Of a stretch of DNA of 64,000 bases, positions 3,232 to 17,497 are shown one piece after another; position 1 is the first letter of the stretch; each line of letters starts with the position of its first letter. A program made the translations under genes and the position numbers. The stretch is from Candidatus Saccharimonadales bacterium. Lineage in GTDB: Bacteria > Patescibacteriota > Saccharimonadia > Saccharimonadales > Saccharimonadaceae. The stretch is from positions 7,192 to 71,191 of the forward strand of contig JBKGVB010000033.1 of assembly GCA_046462475.1 (NCBI GenBank). The letters run 5' to 3'. Under the pieces are notes generated by a model that was given only the letters and a program-made list of their open reading frames with translations, had not been told where the DNA came from and did not search any database.

Positions 3232-6200
3232 ATGGACTTTACGAAGCGTTTTAAGACGCTCAACGATCGGCAAAAAGAGGCGGTAACTGCGATTGATGGA
3301 CCAGTCATGGTTATCGCTGGGCCTGGTACAGGCAAGACCGAACTCCTCAGTATGCGTGCCGCCAATATTCTTCGAGAAACTGACACACTACCAAATAACC
3401 TATTATGTCTGACGTTTACTGAAAGCGGCGCGGCTGCCATGCGGGAGCGACTCGTAAGCATCATCGGCCAAGATGCCTATAAAGTAGCTATTCACACCTT
3501 CCACAGCTTTGGCAGCGATGTCATCGCTCGGTATGGTGAATATTTTTACCAAGGCGCCGATGTGCGTCCGGCCGACGAGATTAGTACGTATGAAATTCTC
3601 CGCGGCATTTTTGAAGAACTGCCACACTCCAGCCCGCTCGCAGGTCAATTTGGTGGTGACTTTACCTATCTCAGCGACACCGCAAAGACAATTTCCGAAT
3701 TAAAAAAGAGCGGACTAACCAGCGACGAGCTACTCGTTGTACTCGATGACAACGAGCGAGTACTCGATACCGCCGAGCCCGTCCTGACTGAGTTATTTGC
3801 AAACCGCATTAGCAAATCGATGCTCCCTCGGCTGTCGGCCATCGCCACCACCATTGCCGAGCTGGAACCTCGCTCACTTCCTTCTAGTATCACACCGCTT
3901 GCAAGCACACTCGCACTCAGCATCGCCCACGCTGTCGATGCGGCAATTGATCTTGAGTCAACCAAGCCTATCACCGCATGGCGCAATAAGTGGCTGGAAA
4001 AGAATGCCAAGGATGAATTTGTCTTCAAGGACCGCAAGCGCCAGGCTCGCCTCCGTGCTGTGAGTAATGTGTATTTCCAGTACCTGAGCCGTATGCAGGA
4101 GCGCCATCTTTATGACTTTGACGACATGGTCTTACGAGTACTGCACGCGACCGAAGTCTTTGACGATCTTCGTTATAGCCTCCAAGAGCAGTACCTCTAC
4201 ATCATGGTTGACGAGTTTCAAGACACAAACCTTGCACAGATGCGCCTGCTGAGCGCCCTCACCAGCAACCCTACAAATGAAGGTGCTCCGAACCTGATGG
4301 TTGTCGGCGATGACGACCAGGCGATTTACAGTTTTCAAGGTGCCGAGATCAGTAATATTCTCGATTTTTCAAGCCGTTACGAGTCAGTCAAGCGCATTAC
4401 GCTCGTCGACAACTATCGCTCAACCCCAGAAGTTCTCACGGCGGCCAGGGAAGTGATTACCCAAGGAAGCGAACGGCTCGAAAGCTATCTTACAGATCTC
4501 GACAAAACGCTCACAGCACATCTCCCGTCCGGCACTGCTGTACGCCTCATAGAAACTGCAACGCCAGACAGTGAACGAGCGTGGCTTGCAAGGCATATCA
4601 AAGAAATGATCAAAAGCGGAACATCTGCACAAGATATCGCCGTCCTCACGAGGCGTCATAACGAACTCGAGGCGCTACTGCCATACTTTACCGCTGAAGA
4701 GGTAACGGTTCAATACGAACGTCGCGATAATATTCTCGAGAACGAACTAATTATCCAGCTTTCTCTCCTGAGTCGCATCATCCATAGCCTTGCAGTTGGT
4801 CAGCATGAGGACGCAAACACTCTACTCCCAGAACTGCTCGCCCATCCAGCTTGGAACTTTTCTTCCGAAACACTATGGAAACTAAGCCTGAAAGCACACC
4901 ATGACCGCGCCTACTGGATGGAAGCGATGAGCGAAATGACCGAATTTCTGCCACTACGCACATGGCTACTCGACATGGCGCAGCAAAGTCTCGTATCGCC
5001 ACTCGAAGTCATGCTTGATCAGCTTGTCGGAAGCTCTGAGACAGACGGTACAGATGCATTTATCTCGCCATATCATGGCTACTTCTTCACTCGCGAAAAG
5101 CGCGACACAGCCTCATCATCGTATCTCGAATTCCTCGAAGCACTGAGAACCTTGCGTCATGAGCTTCGTACGTATAAAAATGGCAATGATATTAAGTTGG
5201 CTGATTTTCTTGACTTCCTCACCGTACACCAGCAGCTTGGCTCTACGATTTCAAGCGTCCGCGTATCAGGATCAGACAACGAGGTAGCCATCCATCTTAT
5301 GACGGCCCACAAATCAAAGGGATTGGAATTCGACCACATCTTTATCGTTGGTGCAGTCGATAGCAAGTGGGGCCGACAAGTCCGTAGTCGTTCACGGCTT
5401 ATTAGCTACCCTGAAAATCTACCACTTATGCCAGCAGGGGACACTTACGATGAGCGCCTGCGTCTTTTCTTCGTTGCGATGACTCGTGCGAAAAAGAGCC
5501 TCACCATTACTCACGCTAGCGCCGATGAATCTGGCTCCGCCTTGAGTCTGCCTGAGTTTTTGGTCGGCAACTCATGGACGGTAGAGACAGTCGAGGAAAG
5601 CTCGGTCGAGCAACAAGTACGCGATGCTAAAATCGCCTGGTACCAGCCTCTTATTACTCCGCTCGAACCGTCCATGAAGCAATTACTCACCTCAACCCTG
5701 GAGCGATACAAACTCAGCGCAACACATCTTTGCAACTTCCTCGACATTACTCATGGCGGACCTGAGCACTTTCTGCTTAGCAACTTACTGCGTTTCCCGG
5801 AAGCAATGAGTCCAGACGCAGTCTATGGATCGGCTATCCACGCCTGCCTGCAACAAGCACACGCGCACCTGATTACGACAGAGCACCAGCGACCAATCGA
5901 AGACAGTCTGCAAGATTTTGAGCATTTTTTGGCGCGCGGCTCACTCGATAAAGATACATTTTCACGTTACCTCGAGCGTGGCAGCAATGCTCTGACGACC
6001 TTCCTGGGTGCAAAAGGGGACAGCTTCACTACCACTCAAAGACCTGAGCTTGGATTCGCTGGACAACAATCGTATATAGATGACACTCATCTTACCGGCA
6101 CGCTTGATCTTGTCGATATCGACCACGAAGCCAAGACCATCATCGTTACCGACTATAAGACAGGGCGTCCGTCTCATTCGTGGAAGGGGAGAAGCGACGG

Positions 6201-6507
6201 CGAAAAGCTTAAACTTCACAAGTACCGCCACCAGTTGCTGTTTTATAAAGTTCTCGTCGAGAATTCACGCGACTGGTCGGCCTATACCGTAACTCACGGT
6301 CGTCTGCAATTTGTCGAGCCGGACGAGCAAGGTGACATCGTAGCACTGGAACTTGAATTTGACTCCGAAGAGGTCGCTTCAATAAAGCGCCTTATTCGTA
6401 CTGTCTGGAAGCATATCATAGCGCTCGATCTACCCGATGTCTCATCCTATAGCCCAACCTACCGCGGCGTACTCGACTTTGAGCGTGCACTCCTTGACGA
6501 AGAATAG
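3232..6507 (+). CDS. UvrD/PcrA-family superfamily-1 helicase fused to a C-terminal PD-(D/E)XK (RecB/Cas4-like) nuclease domain
   Basis: Helicase motifs: Walker A AGPGTGKT, DEFQDT, VGDDDQAIYSFQGA, TAHKSKGLEFDHIFIVG, VAMTRAK. C-terminal nuclease motifs: GTLDLVDID...VTDYKTG and YRHQLLFYK. Confidence 0.85.
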   Translation: MDFTKRFKTLNDRQKEAVTAIDGPVMVIAGPGTGKTELLSMRAANILRETDTLPNNLLCLTFTESGAAAMRERLVSIIGQDAYKVAIHTFHSFGSDVIARYGEYFYQGADVRPADEISTYEILRGIFEELPHSSPLAGQFGGDFTYLSDTAKTISELKKSGLTSDELLVVLDDNERVLDTAEPVLTELFANRISKSMLPRLSAIATTIAELEPRSLPSSITPLASTLALSIAHAVDAAIDLESTKPITAWRNKWLEKNAKDEFVFKDRKRQARLRAVSNVYFQYLSRMQERHLYDFDDMVLRVLHATEVFDDLRYSLQEQYLYIMVDEFQDTNLAQMRLLSALTSNPTNEGAPNLMVVGDDDQAIYSFQGAEISNILDFSSRYESVKRITLVDNYRSTPEVLTAAREVITQGSERLESYLTDLDKTLTAHLPSGTAVRLIETATPDSERAWLARHIKEMIKSGTSAQDIAVLTRRHNELEALLPYFTAEEVTVQYERRDNILENELIIQLSLLSRIIHSLAVGQHEDANTLLPELLAHPAWNFSSETLWKLSLKAHHDRAYWMEAMSEMTEFLPLRTWLLDMAQQSLVSPLEVMLDQLVGSSETDGTDAFISPYHGYFFTREKRDTASSSYLEFLEALRTLRHELRTYKNGNDIKLADFLDFLTVHQQLGSTISSVRVSGSDNEVAIHLMTAHKSKGLEFDHIFIVGAVDSKWGRQVRSRSRLISYPENLPLMPAGDTYDERLRLFFVAMTRAKKSLTITHASADESGSALSLPEFLVGNSWTVETVEESSVEQQVRDAKIAWYQPLITPLEPSMKQLLTSTLERYKLSATHLCNFLDITHGGPEHFLLSNLLRFPEAMSPDAVYGSAIHACLQQAHAHLITTEHQRPIEDSLQDFEHFLARGSLDKDTFSRYLERGSNALTTFLGAKGDSFTTTQRPELGFAGQQSYIDDTHLTGTLDLVDIDHEAKTIIVTDYKTGRPSHSWKGRSDGEKLKLHKYRHQLLFYKVLVENSRDWSAYTVTHGRLQFVEPDEQGDIVALELEFDSEEVASIKRLIRTVWKHIIALDLPDVSSYSPTYRGVLDFERALLDEE

Positions 6508-6522
6508 TAAATACCGTATAAT
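6494..6522 (+). promoter_or_regulatory. Sigma-70-type promoter TTGACG-17 nt-TATAAT reading into the non-coding region
   Basis: -35 at 6494-6499 and -10 at 6517-6522 with a 17-nt spacer. It overlaps the helicase stop codon (6505-6507). Confidence 0.55.
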
Positions 6523-6753
6523 CAAGTGTTAGCTAGTTGAGTGTGCGACTGCGGGAACAAGAGGACGTCTTTTTCGTGTCTCCACAGTCGCACCACTCCT
6601 AGTTCATTAAAAGACAGGAATAGTGCATATAGTCATCCGCAAGTCTCTGACTTTGCGGGTGGGGCATACCCATCCTACGGTGACGGCTCACGCAGCCGGC
6701 TGTTTTAGCGGCCCAGTAACCGGTCACCTACAATGGATGAGTCCCTGCCCAAA

Positions 6754-6863
6754 CGAGATGTAGCTCAGTCTGGAAGAGCACGCGATAGTTTCTCTCCCCG
6801 GTTAACCGAGAGAGAAGCTTCCTATATCGCGAGGCCGTGGGTTCAAATCCCATCATCTCGACC
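6754..6863 (+). tRNA. tRNA-like gene with a 34-nt hairpin insertion in the anticodon loop; anticodon not assignable
   Basis: - Acceptor stem: CGAGATG/CATCTCG.
- D arm: GCTC-AGTCTGGAA-GAGC.
- Anticodon stem: CGCGA (6781-6785) / TCGCG (6827-6831), enclosing 41 nt instead of 7.
- Variable loop: AGGCC.
- T arm: GTGGG-TTCAAAT-CCCAT.
- Discriminator A followed by CC. Confidence 0.6.
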
Positions 6864-7141
6864 GGAAACAAGTAACGGCACGTACCCGAGAAGCGGGCCC
6901 GACTCTTTGTCCCAGAGTCACTTGTTTCCAGGCCCAGTCGTGTGCAACTCTCGACCCCGCACCTCGAGAACACGACTGGGCCACCCCAGCCCGACGAGCA
7001 GAAGGTAGCCCCGGAGGGAGCCTCTTGCTCGTCATCAGCGAGACAAATTCTTTCGTCGCCGGGGAAGGCGATGGCAACAGGGGAATTTGTCTCGCCTAGG
7101 GTGCCGGCGCCGGGGATTCGACCCCTTCGGCGCCGGCACCC
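6864..7141 (+). other. Array of five abutting long perfect hairpins, starting immediately after the tRNA-like 3' end
   Basis: Outer stems, each with a nested inner stem:
- 6864-6873 / 6920-6929 (10 bp)
- 6931-6943 / 6970-6982 (13 bp)
- 6993-7000 / 7026-7033 (8 bp)
- 7038-7050 / 7083-7095 (13 bp)
- 7100-7111 / 7129-7140 (12 bp). Confidence 0.7.
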
Positions 7142-7189
7142 GCTTCTACTTCACACACGCCGACAACCTCGAGAGGGGGTGGAAGCAAT

Positions 7190-7354
7190 ATGGCAAGCAA
7201 GGAAGAAGTTCGTGCTTGGGCTCGCAAGTCTGCAAACGGAGAGAAGCTCGCAGATCACGAGCGAGCTGCAGTCAACCGGACCACTTCACAGGCCGGCAGC
7301 GAGGGCAAGAAGGTCACTCGTCTCCTGGGCGGAAGCAAGGAGAAGGACGACTGA
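7190..7354 (+). CDS. Possible 54-aa hydrophilic protein (MASKEEVRAWARKSANGEKLADHERAAV...)
   Basis: ATG preceded by GAGAGGGGGTGGA 7 nt upstream. GC-rich codons. Too short to appear in the ORF track. It may instead be part of the structured RNA. Confidence 0.35.
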   Translation: MASKEEVRAWARKSANGEKLADHERAAVNRTTSQAGSEGKKVTRLLGGSKEKDD

Positions 7355-7426
7355 CTTAGTCCACGAGACGCCTCCTCGGAGGATCAACGGGCTCATATGT
7401 ATCGTTGATGACGCACTATTCCTGTC

Positions 7427-7481
7427 CGTCTCACCAGACTCATGAATATGTTTCGTGACTCTAGTGAGGCGTTTTTATTTT
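7427..7481 (+). terminator. Rho-independent terminator candidate
   Basis: CGTCTCAC (7427-7434) pairs with GTGAGGCG (7464-7471), including one G-U pair. TTTTTATTTT follows. Confidence 0.5.
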
Positions 7482-7538
7482 GCCTAAAATATGCTATTAT
7501 AAAGACTCGATACAATCTAAAAGCAAAAGGAACGTGCC

Positions 7539-7727
7539 ATGACAGCAGAGTCACTTTCACCAATTCATGATGAATCAGAAGTAATAAAACTTCACGCTGT
7601 CGAGACAAACAAGGAGCTAGCAGCTCGAGCGGTACCGAAAGTCATCGAGTGGGGACCGAGTCACCACCGTAGCGACTACGAAACACCCGACACATCTAGC
7701 CCAGAGGGCCTTACCTATAGCGCATAG
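7539..7727 (+). CDS. Small hypothetical protein (62 aa) upstream of dus
   Basis: AGGAA lies 6 nt before the ATG and TACAAT sits at 7511-7516. The stop is 10 nt before the dus start. Confidence 0.5.
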   Translation: MTAESLSPIHDESEVIKLHAVETNKELAARAVPKVIEWGPSHHRSDYETPDTSSPEGLTYSA

Positions 7728-7736
7728 TTACGTCAC

Positions 7737-8681
7737 ATGACATCATTTTGGCGAGACCTACCACAACCTTTCTTTATTTTGGCCCCAATGGAGGCTGTAA
7801 CTGATGTTGTGTTTCGTCATGTAGTCGAAGAGGCGAGCGCCCCAGACCTTTATTTTACTGAGTTTACGAACGCCACGGGATGGGTTCATGCTGGCGATAA
7901 AGCTATTGGCGGACGCCTCGTAAAAACCGAGGACGAGACAAAGCTGGTCGCACAGCTGTGGGGTGCTGTACCCGAAGACATGGCAAAGCTTGCCACGCGC
8001 TGCCGCGAGCTCGGCTACCTTGGTGTTGACATCAACATGGGCTGCCCAGACTCTTCTGCCGTCAAAGCTGGCGGTGGCGCGGCAATGTGTCGCACCCCAG
8101 AACTTGCCGGAGAAATGATCGCAGCCGCAAAAACAAGCGGACTGCCAACCTCGGTAAAATGTCGACTCGGCTATAGTCAAGTTACTGAATGGCGCGAGTG
8201 GCTCACATTCTTATTCCAGCAGGATGTCGAAAATCTCACCATACACCTCCGCACAAAAAAAGAAATGAGCAAAGTTCCTGCCCATTTTGAATTAATCCCA
8301 GAAATTGTCGCCTTGCGCGATGAGATTGCTCCACAGACTTTACTTACCATTAACGGAGATATCGAAGACAGGGAACAGGGTCTTCGTCTGGTCAAAGAAA
8401 ATCCTGGTGTCAACGGTGTCATGATCGGCCGTGGAGTTTTCCATAATCCATTTTGCTTTGAAACCAACTCAACCACACACAGTCGAGAAGAGTTACTTAC
8501 CCTCCTCAAGCTTCAACTTGATTTATATGATCAGTATTCCAGCCACACCCGTCGACCATTCGAGACGCTGAAACGTTTTTTCAAAATCTATGTCAACAGC
8601 TTTGAGGGTGCCGCAGAACTGCGCGACAAGCTGATGCACACGAAAACTACTGACGAAGTGCGCGCACTTATTTCTGAGTAA
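7737..8681 (+). CDS. dus: tRNA-dihydrouridine synthase
   Basis: FILAPMEAVTDVVFR and GVDINMGCP motifs, with TIM-barrel Dus family length. Confidence 0.85.
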   Translation: MTSFWRDLPQPFFILAPMEAVTDVVFRHVVEEASAPDLYFTEFTNATGWVHAGDKAIGGRLVKTEDETKLVAQLWGAVPEDMAKLATRCRELGYLGVDINMGCPDSSAVKAGGGAAMCRTPELAGEMIAAAKTSGLPTSVKCRLGYSQVTEWREWLTFLFQQDVENLTIHLRTKKEMSKVPAHFELIPEIVALRDEIAPQTLLTINGDIEDREQGLRLVKENPGVNGVMIGRGVFHNPFCFETNSTTHSREELLTLLKLQLDLYDQYSSHTRRPFETLKRFFKIYVNSFEGAAELRDKLMHTKTTDEVRALISE

Positions 8682-15805: not shown

Positions 15806-17497
15806 TCAGTAAGATAATGCCGTTTGAGTACCACCGACAACCGGCGTACGAGAACCACTGTTCGTGCCATTGCCATAGTTCCCATCCGCGTTCCATCCCC
15901 AGCAATACATCTGGTTGCTAGAACTTAGAGCACATGTCGTCGATCTACCAGCCGAAGCGGATGCCAAGGTCTTGCCCGATAAGGCTCCAGAAGTATCGAC
16001 AGCAACAGGGACGAGCGAGGAGGTTATAAATGAAGAAGTACCGAGTTGGCCTGCACCATTACCCCCCCAGCATGCCATTTGATTGTCAGCTGTAATCACA
16101 CAACCATGCTGTCCGCTATGCGTAATCCCCGTTATTGTCTTGCCCGACAGCACCCCTGAAACAGACACAGCGATCGGCACGCTAGAAGAACTCGCCGTAC
16201 CGCTACCCAGCTCACCGTTCGAGCCAAAGCCCCAGCAGTACGCTTTATTATCGGAGGCGATGACACAAGTGTCACTAAACCCGGTTACGAGCTGCTTGAT
16301 TGTTTTCCCTGACAGAGCTCCCGTAGTAGTAACGGCAACTGGCGCATTAGAAGTCGTCGAGGCAACACCGTTCCCAAGTGAGCCACTACTGGTTGCTCCC
16401 CAGCAGTAGGCATTGTTGTCCGAGGCGACAACGCAACCGCCGAACTCACCTAGGCTAACTTGCTTGACGGTCTTGCCCGCTAACGCACCGCCAGTATAGA
16501 CAGGTGAGGGCACGTAGCTGCTCGTCCCGCTGTTATCACCAATCCTACCCCCATTACCGAATCCCCAGCAGTAAGCATTGTTGTCAGAGGCGACAACACA
16601 TGCACCATAAATACCGACAGCAATTTGTTTCACTGTCTTGTTTCTCAGTGCTCCGGAGTTCGTGACCGCCACTGGTACATTCGACGCAGTATTCTGACCA
16701 TCACCGAGAGAACCATAGTAGTTGTAGCCCCAACAATATGCATTATCATCGGAGGCAATCACACAGGTAATATTTCCTCCAGCGCTAATTGCCTTGATCG
16801 TTAAGTTTTTTAACACCCCTCCGGTATATACAGGCGTAGGCACATAAGCATCGGAATTAGATCCATTACCAAGCTGCCCATAATCATTCTTCCCCCAGCA
16901 ATATGCTTGAGCAGTTACTGATATACCGCATGTGTAGCTTGCATTTATCCCAAGTGTTACCTGCGTCCATCCAAATTTCACAACCCCAGTAATATTTTGA
17001 TTATAGCTCTGCCACACTGCGCCATTGCTCGACCTCAGCAGTTGCACAGTTCCGTTAACCGGAATCGTATACGATCCATCCGAATTAAATGTCGCCGTTC
17101 CCACCGAGAACGTAGTCCGTGCATTTCCATTACTGAGTACGTAGCAGCTCGGAGTATCCGTCGAGCAAGCCACACCCCCTCCACAGTCCGTATTAGGACG
17201 AAGAGGGGAAGTATTAGACCATGTCGGTGTGCTCGTACCGTTTGCGATACACGCCTTCGCCATCGTAAGCCCTGCTTCCGCAGCTTCCTTGGCAAGCTTG
17301 TTATAGTACTGGGCATTGATCGAAGCTGTAATAGAACCGACTGAAGCAAGTGTAACCGTTAAGAGAAGCATCATGACCACTGAGGCGATCAGCACCGTTG
17401 GCAGAGCAAATGCCGGGGAATAATGCTTGCGGTTTAACAACATATACCTTATAGTAGCCGCTAACTCCATTGACTGCAATATGCGTTTACTGTACAA
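15806..17497 (-). CDS. RCC1-repeat seven-bladed beta-propeller protein with a pilin/PilX-like hydrophobic N-terminal anchor
   Basis: Seven repeats of (A/M)(Y/A)CWG.N..G.LG. N-terminus ...SPAFALPTVLIASVVMMLLL. Start uncertain: TTG at 17497, ATG at 17470 or ATG at 17443. Confidence 0.75.
   Translation of the reverse strand: MYSKRILQSMELAATIRYMLLNRKHYSPAFALPTVLIASVVMMLLLTVTLASVGSITASINAQYYNKLAKEAAEAGLTMAKACIANGTSTPTWSNTSPLRPNTDCGGGVACSTDTPSCYVLSNGNARTTFSVGTATFNSDGSYTIPVNGTVQLLRSSNGAVWQSYNQNITGVVKFGWTQVTLGINASYTCGISVTAQAYCWGKNDYGQLGNGSNSDAYVPTPVYTGGVLKNLTIKAISAGGNITCVIASDDNAYCWGYNYYGSLGDGQNTASNVPVAVTNSGALRNKTVKQIAVGIYGACVVASDNNAYCWGFGNGGRIGDNSGTSSYVPSPVYTGGALAGKTVKQVSLGEFGGCVVASDNNAYCWGATSSGSLGNGVASTTSNAPVAVTTTGALSGKTIKQLVTGFSDTCVIASDNKAYCWGFGSNGELGSGTASSSSVPIAVSVSGVLSGKTITGITHSGQHGCVITADNQMACWGGNGAGQLGTSSFITSSLVPVAVDTSGALSGKTLASASAGRSTTCALSSSNQMYCWGWNADGNYGNGTNSGSRTPVVGGTQTALSY

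Follow-up and report, generated by a model that had tools for sequence, protein, structure and literature searches.

The stretch of DNA analysed here (the window, 64,000 nucleotides [nt]) is part of a chromosome of Candidatus Saccharibacteria (TM7, a lineage of the candidate phyla radiation, CPR), as judged from the relatives of an AddA-like protein encoded in it. This protein, a UvrD/PD-(D/E)XK helicase-nuclease of 1091 amino acids, has homologues at 55-71% identity, and all of those with a named source are labelled Saccharibacteria, Saccharimonadales or Patescibacteria. Its gene (3232-6507) is followed by about 680 nt of non-coding DNA, an open reading frame (ORF) of 54 amino acids, a second of 62 amino acids, and dus (7737-8681); beyond dus, an ATP synthase operon lies on the opposite strand. 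The same order, from the AddA-like gene through spacer and small ORFs to dus and ATP synthase, is conserved across Saccharibacteria. The spacer between the AddA-like gene and the small ORF and dus is promoter-driven and highly structured (the fold of 6525-7190 is a series of long hairpins, z = -10.3), and it contains at 6754-6861 the subject of this report, a tRNA-like element whose anticodon arm has no decoding loop. It is very probably a tRNA mimic that does not decode, belongs to a conserved family and is maintained by selection, and it may direct the processing of the transcript in which it lies.

Structure of the tRNA-like element

The features of the spacer are listed in Table 1. The element has all the arms of a tRNA. 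A 7-base-pair (bp) acceptor stem (CGAGATG, 6754-6760, with CATCTCG, 6854-6860) is followed by discriminator A6861; the D stem (GCTC, 6763-6766, with GAGC, 6776-6779) closes a D loop, AGTCTGGAA, that carries G18 and G19; and a 5-nt variable loop (AGGCC, 6832-6836) precedes the T arm (GTGGG-TTCAAAT-CCCAT, 6837-6853). Each of the four helices pairs perfectly, and every invariant tertiary nucleotide is in place; the cloverleaf core comprises U8, A14, G18G19, G53 T54 Psi55 C56 and the 15:48 pair. Acceptor pair 3:70 is A3-U70 and not G3:U70.

The anticodon stem (CGCGA, 6781-6785, with TCGCG, 6827-6831) encloses 41 nt (6786-6826). Within this segment TA/TA forms two more pairs coaxial on the anticodon stem, a 9-bp helix with one G-U pair joins 6788-6796 to 6810-6818, the tip contains CGG/CCG within the palindrome GGTTAACC (6800-6807), and six nucleotides, TTCCTA (6819-6824), bulge out on the 3' side. 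The original prediction had described these same arms, the stem around 41 nt, and the helix with its palindromic loop and 3' bulge, and both the sequence and the minimum free energy (MFE) fold bear it out. The MFE fold is this cloverleaf (-42.7 kcal/mol, z = -3.96), and none of 200 shuffles equalled it. When the whole window was compared with all Rfam families, the tRNA model (RF00005) scored 53.2 bits here (gathering threshold 29, E = 1.3e-8), with a 40-nt insertion in the anticodon loop of the alignment. A 5-bp stem with a 7-nt loop carrying U33 and a purine at position 37 is absent, since the 41-nt loop folds into a helix, and ARAGORN in its default mode makes no tRNA call on the element.

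The genuine tRNAs of the genomes examined encode CCA (8 of 8, including tRNA-Leu and tRNA-Glu of the window, which end in ACCA), whereas the element reads ACCG; of 55 spacer elements of the family described below, 54 keep C74 (6862 in the window) and 9 have CCA. The trailer often reads CUGRGG. Conservation of C74 could reflect a partial RCCA contact with the RNA of RNase P, or what the CCA-adding enzyme requires of its substrates.

Table 1. Features of the spacer between the AddA-like gene and dus (window coordinates)
Feature	Coordinates	Strand	Basis and remarks
Sigma-70 promoter, near-consensus TTGACG-17-TATAAT; presumed start of the spacer transcript	6494..6522	+	11/12 match; overlaps the stop codon of the AddA-like gene
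5' leader domain: long hairpin 6531-6604, then conserved motif AAAGACAGGAATAGTGC	6531..6630	+	Fold; blocks conserved with L001
tRNA-like element (mimic): acceptor, D and T arms, 5-nt variable loop, no decoding loop	6754..6861	+	Rfam tRNA model; own model R1; MFE cloverleaf
Extended 'anticodon' arm: 7 bp (CGCGATA/TATCGCG), 9 bp, CGG/CCG, 6-nt 3' bulge TTCCTA, TTAA tip	6781..6831	+	Fold; 51 nt; lineage-variable part of the family
Start of the 3' trailer: CC, then G	6862..6863	+	C74 kept in the family; CCA not encoded
Branched stem-loop, starting 3 nt past the discriminator, without U-tract	6864..6929	+	Fold, -24.1 kcal/mol
Four more long hairpins (6932-6981, 6992-7033, 7038-7097, 7101-7143)	6932..7143	+	Fold; last two conserved with L001
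Shine-Dalgarno sequence GAGAGGGGGTGG and 54-amino-acid small ORF (7190-7354)	7172..7354	+	Translation; homologous ORFs in relatives

Relatives at the same syntenic site

Related Saccharibacteria loci were gathered from genomes (28 loci) and metagenomes (80), and the 101 loci with enough downstream sequence were scanned strictly for canonical T arms directly adjoining an acceptor stem of 7 bp. The spacers gave 60 matches in 154 kb, all on the gene (+) strand and distributed over 45 of the 101 loci; elsewhere the scan, run on both strands of 1,347 kb, gave four matches, and all four are genuine tRNA-Gln. The number of elements per locus is one, two or, in L008, five.

At the same position, the closest relative (L001, 71% AddA identity) has a cloverleaf of 116 nt in which pairing is complete and most of the acceptor and T-stem pairs differ in sequence from those of the window; its anticodon arm is a three-helix hairpin of 60 nt, unrelated in sequence to that of the window. 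The group to which the window belongs is marked by C1-G72, A73 and a D arm of the form UAGCUCAG...GAGCA. Across the family the 'anticodon' arm ranges from a 13-nt stub to a branched hairpin of 86 nt, and the arms have no sequence in common: L158 has 13 nt in total, L088 43 nt, and L008 at its longest 86 nt; L016 has 9 bp with an ACAG tetraloop, L019 and L155 have covarying stems of 7-8 bp with the loop AGAAAGA, L096 has 6 bp with ACCCCCC, and L107 a bulged stem with GAAGGG. Of these loci, L016, L019, L155, L096, L107 and L158 belong to the group of the window, and their arms cannot decode. Only L087 in the group has a loop of tRNA shape (GUUUAGA). Its element (L087 4133-4206) has a normal 5-bp stem and 7-nt loop (U33, anticodon UUA, G37) and is called 'tRNA-Stop' by ARAGORN; this is a state that the variable arm has reached by chance, or else the element is an ochre-suppressor-like tRNA. 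ARAGORN forces different isotypes at different loci (Phe, Ser, Gly, Val, 'Stop' or undetermined), and 26 of 55 elements, one 'tRNA-Stop' among them, receive arbitrary or undetermined isotypes.

Other Saccharibacteria contain further classes, with the acceptor sequences GGACAUA...UGUGUCCG (88-95 nt), UGGGAUG...CAUCCCAG (about 100 nt), GGAGAUA...UAUCUCCG (59-76 nt) and GGGUGUG...CACAUCCA (55-76 nt). Acceptor signatures are specific to the class: C1-G72/A73 in the group of the window, U1-A72/G73 in another, and G3:U70 with A73 in the GGGUGUG class. The smallest members of the family (55-62 nt) consist of an acceptor arm, a T arm and generic hairpins only. Minimal elements with G3:U70, A73 and the stem GGGUGUG/CACAUCC (55-76 nt) occur at L147 4388-4442, L026 8881-8956, L034 8859-8927 and L143 4396-4465, and further ones at L011 9035-9105, L014 9028-9097 and L134 4651-4720. 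G3:U70 with A73 is the alanine identity set, and these elements might be chargeable by alanyl-tRNA synthetase although they have no anticodon arm. In the spacer of L008 (8582-9238), tRNAs or tRNA-like units stand in a tandem array of five or six: a 142-nt unit with the 86-nt arm, three whose loops lack U33, a weak minimal one, and a tRNA-Cys(GCA) that appears genuine and likewise has no encoded CCA.

A covariance model of our own (R1), built from seven edited seeds, recovers the family elements and gives 69.5 bits to that of the window. When 22 spacer elements are aligned to the model, standard pairs fill 98.9% of the cells, a figure that leans towards structure because the alignment was fitted to the model; both sides have changed in compensation at 17 of the 21 pairs. 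None of 500 shuffles matches the observed pairing and covariation, and controls in which the alignment was slid are 41-47% paired. In the raw sequences, too, substitutions in the acceptor and T stems visibly compensate one another, and the tertiary 15:48 (Levitt) pair is G15:C48 or A15:U48 in 20 of the 22 elements. The Rfam tRNA model, which is independent of R1, assigns 31-65 bits to elements of related loci, and 43-65 bits to the same-site elements of L087, L155, L016, L158, L019, L107 and L011. Our sequence comparison thus supports an L-shaped core (a canonical T arm with a 7-bp acceptor stem stacked on it, in most cases a D arm, G18G19 and the 15:48 pair) that is kept by selection, and an anticodon arm that appears free to become any stable hairpin, the 51-nt bulged arm being its state in the window.

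Processing module or other role

We estimate at roughly 55% the probability that the mimic, as a member of this non-decoding family, is a processing module for RNase P and RNase Z, a case of tRNA punctuation. According to this proposal, a single RNA would start from the AddA stop codon promoter, span the spacer and run on into the mRNA of the small protein; the mimic would be cut at its 5' end by RNase P and at its 3' end, after A6861, by RNase Z or an equivalent pathway. The two cleavages would part a 5' leader RNA from a downstream RNA that starts with a protective stem-loop (6864-6929) and carries the Shine-Dalgarno sequence and the small ORF, and the by-product, tRNA-sized at about 108 nt, may receive CCA. 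Bacterial mRNAs whose 5' end is buried in a stem-loop are protected from decay that depends on that end. RNase P, the CCA-adding enzyme and, on 3' ends without CCA, RNase Z all recognise the top half of a tRNA, which the mimic offers. The anticodon arm would be able to drift in length and sequence because it lies outside the surface recognised by the processing enzymes, and the 41-nt 'insert' would be one state of this drift. The minimal members of the family retain the acceptor and T arms, which is the part seen by RNase P, RNase Z and the CCA-adding enzyme, and so support a role in processing.

The surroundings of the mimic are consistent with such a role. A promoter at the AddA stop codon is also found in L001, L002 and L107, and slightly downstream in L016, L019, L096 and L155; in all, 8 of 11 loci examined have a consensus promoter at or just past this codon. 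On the 3' side, all 10 loci of the window's group have a stem-loop that starts within 1-5 nt of the discriminator; no U-tract follows it, so it is not a terminator, and no terminator was found between the mimic and the small ORF. In most relatives a Shine-Dalgarno sequence and small ORF follow the mimic at about 54-130 nt, and in L019 dus itself begins 57 nt after it. In the window the Shine-Dalgarno sequence and the 54-amino-acid ORF are presumably co-transcribed with the mimic. One of three readings in the original prediction, a tRNA-like structural module of the surrounding RNA, gains support from this structured, promoter-driven spacer and from same-site relatives with arbitrary hairpin arms.

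Several observations weigh against a processing module. The group of the window retains a full D arm and the tertiary pair, neither of which a bare cleavage signal would need, and this hints at an additional partner. C74 is nearly universal, and cleavage by RNase Z offers no specific explanation for it. A weak hairpin and U-run upstream of the mimic (6684-6708) could end part of the transcription before the mimic is reached. The distance from mimic to small ORF in the window is 329 nt and includes five extra hairpins, unlike the arrangement in most relatives. Finally, by the strict scan 56 of the 101 loci have no element, including L002 (60% AddA identity), so the module must be dispensable or replaceable.

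The closest known counterparts are the t-elements of plant mitochondria, which carry GGTTCRANYCC and direct cleavage by RNase P and RNase Z, forming 5' and 3' ends of mRNAs (Forner et al. 2007; PMC1920247). The mimic shares with them a non-canonical cloverleaf that does not decode, an acceptor stem, and a T arm of this type (GGGTTCAAATCCC in the window, and likewise in 60 elements of related loci). The t-elements are embedded in longer transcripts beside mRNAs, and the mimic is predicted to be so too; its position, the promoter, the absence of a terminator, and the trailer stem-loop with Shine-Dalgarno sequence and ORF are all compatible with this. As proposed here, RNase Z would in both cases generate the 5' end of an mRNA and RNase P the 3' end of the upstream RNA, and the addition of non-encoded C or CA, which excised t-elements can receive, is a further proposed likeness. 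The differences are that the host of the mimic is a free-living or epibiotic CPR bacterium and not an organelle; that the mimics occupy one syntenic spacer and fall into several acceptor-signature classes; and that the window's group keeps a complete D arm and tertiary core, with an arm that is lengthened and not degenerate. Cleavage of the mimic is only inferred.

Modules of a comparable kind occur outside organelles. In mascRNA of MALAT1, the 3' module of MEN-beta, and the tRNA-like/pre-microRNA chimeras of murine gammaherpesvirus 68 (MHV68), a tRNA-like unit is cut by RNase P, RNase Z or both, which matures the neighbouring RNA. The anticodon arm of mascRNA-type and MHV68 modules is non-canonical, and they are not aminoacylated; in MHV68, hairpins directly follow the tRNA-like unit, as they do at the mimic locus. 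These are eukaryotic nuclear or viral transcripts of RNA polymerase II or III, unlike the mimic, to which they have no sequence relationship, and the downstream cargo of the mimic is apparently the mRNA of a small protein.

Two bacterial RNAs that imitate tRNA were considered and rejected. YrlA, a bacterial Y RNA, mimics the D arm, T arm and acceptor stem of tRNA and has a long helix at the position of the anticodon arm (Chen et al. 2014; PMC4201824). It is circularly permuted, with its termini in the Ro-binding helix on the anticodon side and its acceptor stem closed by a loop (PMC4201824), whereas the mimic has an open acceptor stem and a closed long arm. Identity with YrlA or another Y RNA is ruled out by this unpermuted topology, by the absence of any match to Rfam Y RNA, and by the neighbouring genes (AddA-like helicase, small ORFs, Dus and ATP synthase), to which rsr is not adjacent; the window ORFs scanned include no TROVE/Rsr (Ro60) gene. 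The tRNA-like domain of tmRNA is likewise a mimic based on acceptor and T arms, without an anticodon; the element of the window differs from it as a contiguous 108-nt cloverleaf with a complete D arm and A3-U70, and without tag frame or pseudoknots. ARAGORN made no tmRNA call, and in the absence of G3:U70, a tag ORF and pseudoknots a tmRNA is excluded.

The searchable literature yielded no description of such tRNA-like elements in Saccharibacteria or CPR, and the family is apparently undescribed; the one match to TM7 was an unrelated paper on tobacco mosaic virus, and for tRNA introns in CPR only papers on rRNA introns and megaphages came up. In organelles, eukaryotic nuclei and viruses, processing modules that resemble tRNAs are familiar; for bacterial mRNA maturation by RNase P or RNase Z at mimics that are not tRNAs, we know of scattered cases only. 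What is new is the tRNA-mimic processing element proposed here, in a new lineage and with a distinctive architecture; its kind, the t-element-type module, is known. A broader proposal, which we advance tentatively, is that Saccharibacteria keep a dedicated locus of anticodon-less mimics derived from several tRNA types (C1-G72/A73, U1-A72/G73 and G3:U70/A73) as a bacterial form of tRNA punctuation, in which cleavage by RNase P and RNase Z would fix where small-protein mRNAs and leader RNAs end, and thereby how stable they are. In a bolder version the excised RNAs could themselves be functional, the G3:U70 class being alanylated and the variable arm serving as a lineage-specific effector surface. 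If this is correct, a conserved family of mimics in several classes, at one syntenic site throughout one CPR lineage, would be a clean natural system in which to ask what portion of a tRNA is needed by the processing enzymes of bacteria with reduced genomes, by what route tRNA genes are co-opted as regulatory RNAs, and how the small-protein genes of Saccharibacteria are expressed. The mimics can also contaminate CPR tRNA inventories and codon-reassignment calls, because they score above the Rfam tRNA threshold and receive arbitrary isotypes from ARAGORN.

Four other explanations were weighed against the processing module. One, which we consider unlikely, is a stand-alone tRNA-shaped RNA that functions in trans, whether as a ligand or decoy of Dus, another tRNA-modifying enzyme, an aminoacyl-tRNA synthetase, EF-Tu or a toxin, as a molecule charged independently of the anticodon, or as a tRNA scaffold that displays a lineage-specific hairpin; its release from the transcript would then be a maturation step only. 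The full L shape of the window's group (D arm, G18G19 and the covarying 15:48 pair) suits such an RNA, but many members of the family have no D arm at all, so recognition by Dus or of the elbow cannot be general. Synteny with dus throughout Saccharibacteria points the same way, although the conserved order of AddA, dus and ATP synthase genes spans the whole region and need not be functional. The class-specific acceptor signatures, including G3:U70/A73, would fit charging, but the window element has A3-U70; and the arms, which a scaffold would display, share no conserved sequence. A test of pairing between the arm and the start of the small ORF was negative. The candidate tried was an arm acting as anti-Shine-Dalgarno or antisense of the small ORF (GCUUCC/GGAAGC): duplex energies were no better than those of shuffles (p about 0.29 in the window and about 0.05 in L001), and cognate pairs did not rank first across nine loci.

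It is improbable that the element is a decaying tRNA pseudogene, the functionless relic of an old tRNA cluster in the spacer into which a palindromic hairpin was inserted. Such a history would account for the variation in spacer content and length between lineages, for the apparently genuine tRNA-Cys beside odd units in the L008 array, for the more than half of the loci that have no element, and for the perfect palindrome in the insert. Against it stand the four perfect helices and intact tertiary nucleotides, the full pairing of L001 with mostly changed acceptor and T-stem pairs, and the family-wide compensatory changes; variation is confined to the anticodon arm, and random decay would not have spared the remainder. 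Moreover, the insert is single-copy (no second copy within 3 mismatches anywhere in the window), and its excision yields no 7-nt loop by way of a target-site duplication. The suggestion in the original prediction of a disabled tRNA holds in that the element does not decode, but not in the sense of decay, as the scaffold is under clear purifying selection. An origin of the insert from a repeat or miniature inverted-repeat transposable element was rejected, there being no second copy and no clean target-site duplication; excision with TA duplication leaves a loop of 4 nt.

It is very improbable that the element is a tRNA-Arg(CCU) split by a 32-nt hairpin (6787-6818), which some unknown bacterial activity would remove to leave the loop UUCCUAU on a 6-bp stem. 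ARAGORN, when run with its intron search as the original prediction had advised, does return tRNA-Arg(CCT), the intron being 32 nt long. Its removal would leave U33 and A37 in the loop, and both A20 in the D loop and discriminator A, which are Arg identity features, are present. However, the intron lies at the 5' edge of the loop (ARAGORN position 33-34) and not at 37/38, and the solution needs a shifted stem (GCGAU/AUCGC) or one of 6 bp; that a CCU anticodon is available only with a shifted stem had been foreseen. Bacterial tRNA introns are normally group I introns of more than 200 nt, and the short protein-spliced introns of archaea and eukaryotes need a bulge-helix-bulge fold. As had been predicted, there is no such fold, the one-sided 6-nt bulge being the only one, and at 32-41 nt the insert is an order of magnitude below group I size and matches no Rfam intron family at E up to 10. 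Same-site relatives yield inconsistent forced calls (Phe, Ser, Gly, Val), some of their arms are shorter than a normal anticodon arm (L158, 13 nt) or end in a tetraloop (L016), and A20 is not conserved in the group. The element shares with canonical tRNAs the cloverleaf, the invariant core nucleotides and a score over the tRNA gathering threshold, but has neither the 7-nt anticodon loop nor the CCA encoded in the genuine tRNAs of its genome. RtcB and EndA were not found among the window ORFs scanned against Pfam, which is weak evidence as it covers 64 kb only. The third reading of the original prediction, a tRNA with a small intervening sequence, is not supported by this forced ARAGORN solution or by relatives whose arms cannot give any anticodon loop.

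An artefact of assembly or sequencing can practically be dismissed: nothing specific speaks for one beyond the metagenome-type source, in which chimeras are possible, whereas the insert is a coaxial extension of the anticodon stem and independent assemblies have comparably long arms at the same site (60 nt in L001, 43 nt in L088, 86 nt in L008).

Other RNAs and small proteins of the spacer

The spacer appears to contain further structured RNAs. Directly after the promoter, the 5' leader consists of a long hairpin, a short hairpin and a motif ACAG(N)A(R)AUAGUG, and equivalents lie at L001 7300-7395, L016 8340-8440 and L155 3930-4015, in lineages with 45-71% AddA identity; the motif AAAGACAGGAATAGTGC recurs in L001, L002, L016, L019 and L155. 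The leader (6531-6630) matches no Rfam family and may be a small RNA freed by RNase P cleavage at the mimic. The hairpins at 7038-7143 (L001 7600-7700), just 5' of the small ORF, show compensatory changes relative to L001. One has the loop GGGGAA on the stem CGUCGCC/GGCGAUG, which is ACCGCC/GGCGGU in L001; the other pairs GGGUGCCGGCGCC...GGCGCCGGCACCC around GGAUUCGACCCC. They could form a cis-regulatory leader and have no Rfam match. Searched against Rfam at gathering thresholds and at E up to 10, the spacer RNA gave only tRNA and chance matches to microRNA hairpins, and 17 related loci gave tRNA only. A blastn comparison of 6450-7250 with 50,697 phage records returned nothing, and a phage origin was rejected for this chromosomal window.

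Small ORFs of the spacer are lineage-specific (window 7190-7354 and 7539-7727; L030 8443-8595, L104 4103-4255, L149 4345-4524), and their proteins have no Pfam match beyond noise at E up to 10. One conserved family of about 55 amino acids (…KQAGS.G…), a second, helical family of about 55 amino acids (L016, L107), and the proteins of 50-59 amino acids with DnaJ-like CxxCxGxG zinc-finger repeats encoded in the spacers of oral-type TM7 have no Pfam assignment. A small protein of the window type is encoded at the same position in L001, L155, L026 and L008. In L001, a public gene call for a protein of 138 amino acids (7410-7826) crosses the tRNA-like element and the structured spacer and is probably spurious; the mechanical ORFs 6733-7008 and 6942-7445 of the window are likewise unsupported.

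An exact-sequence look-up of the Dus protein of the window found no record. Adjoining the ATP synthase operon, on the - strand at 15806-17497, is a gene for a protein of 563 amino acids with RCC1-like repeats (WD40_RLD, 260 bits); to our knowledge, RCC1-repeat proteins are uncommon in bacteria with such small genomes.

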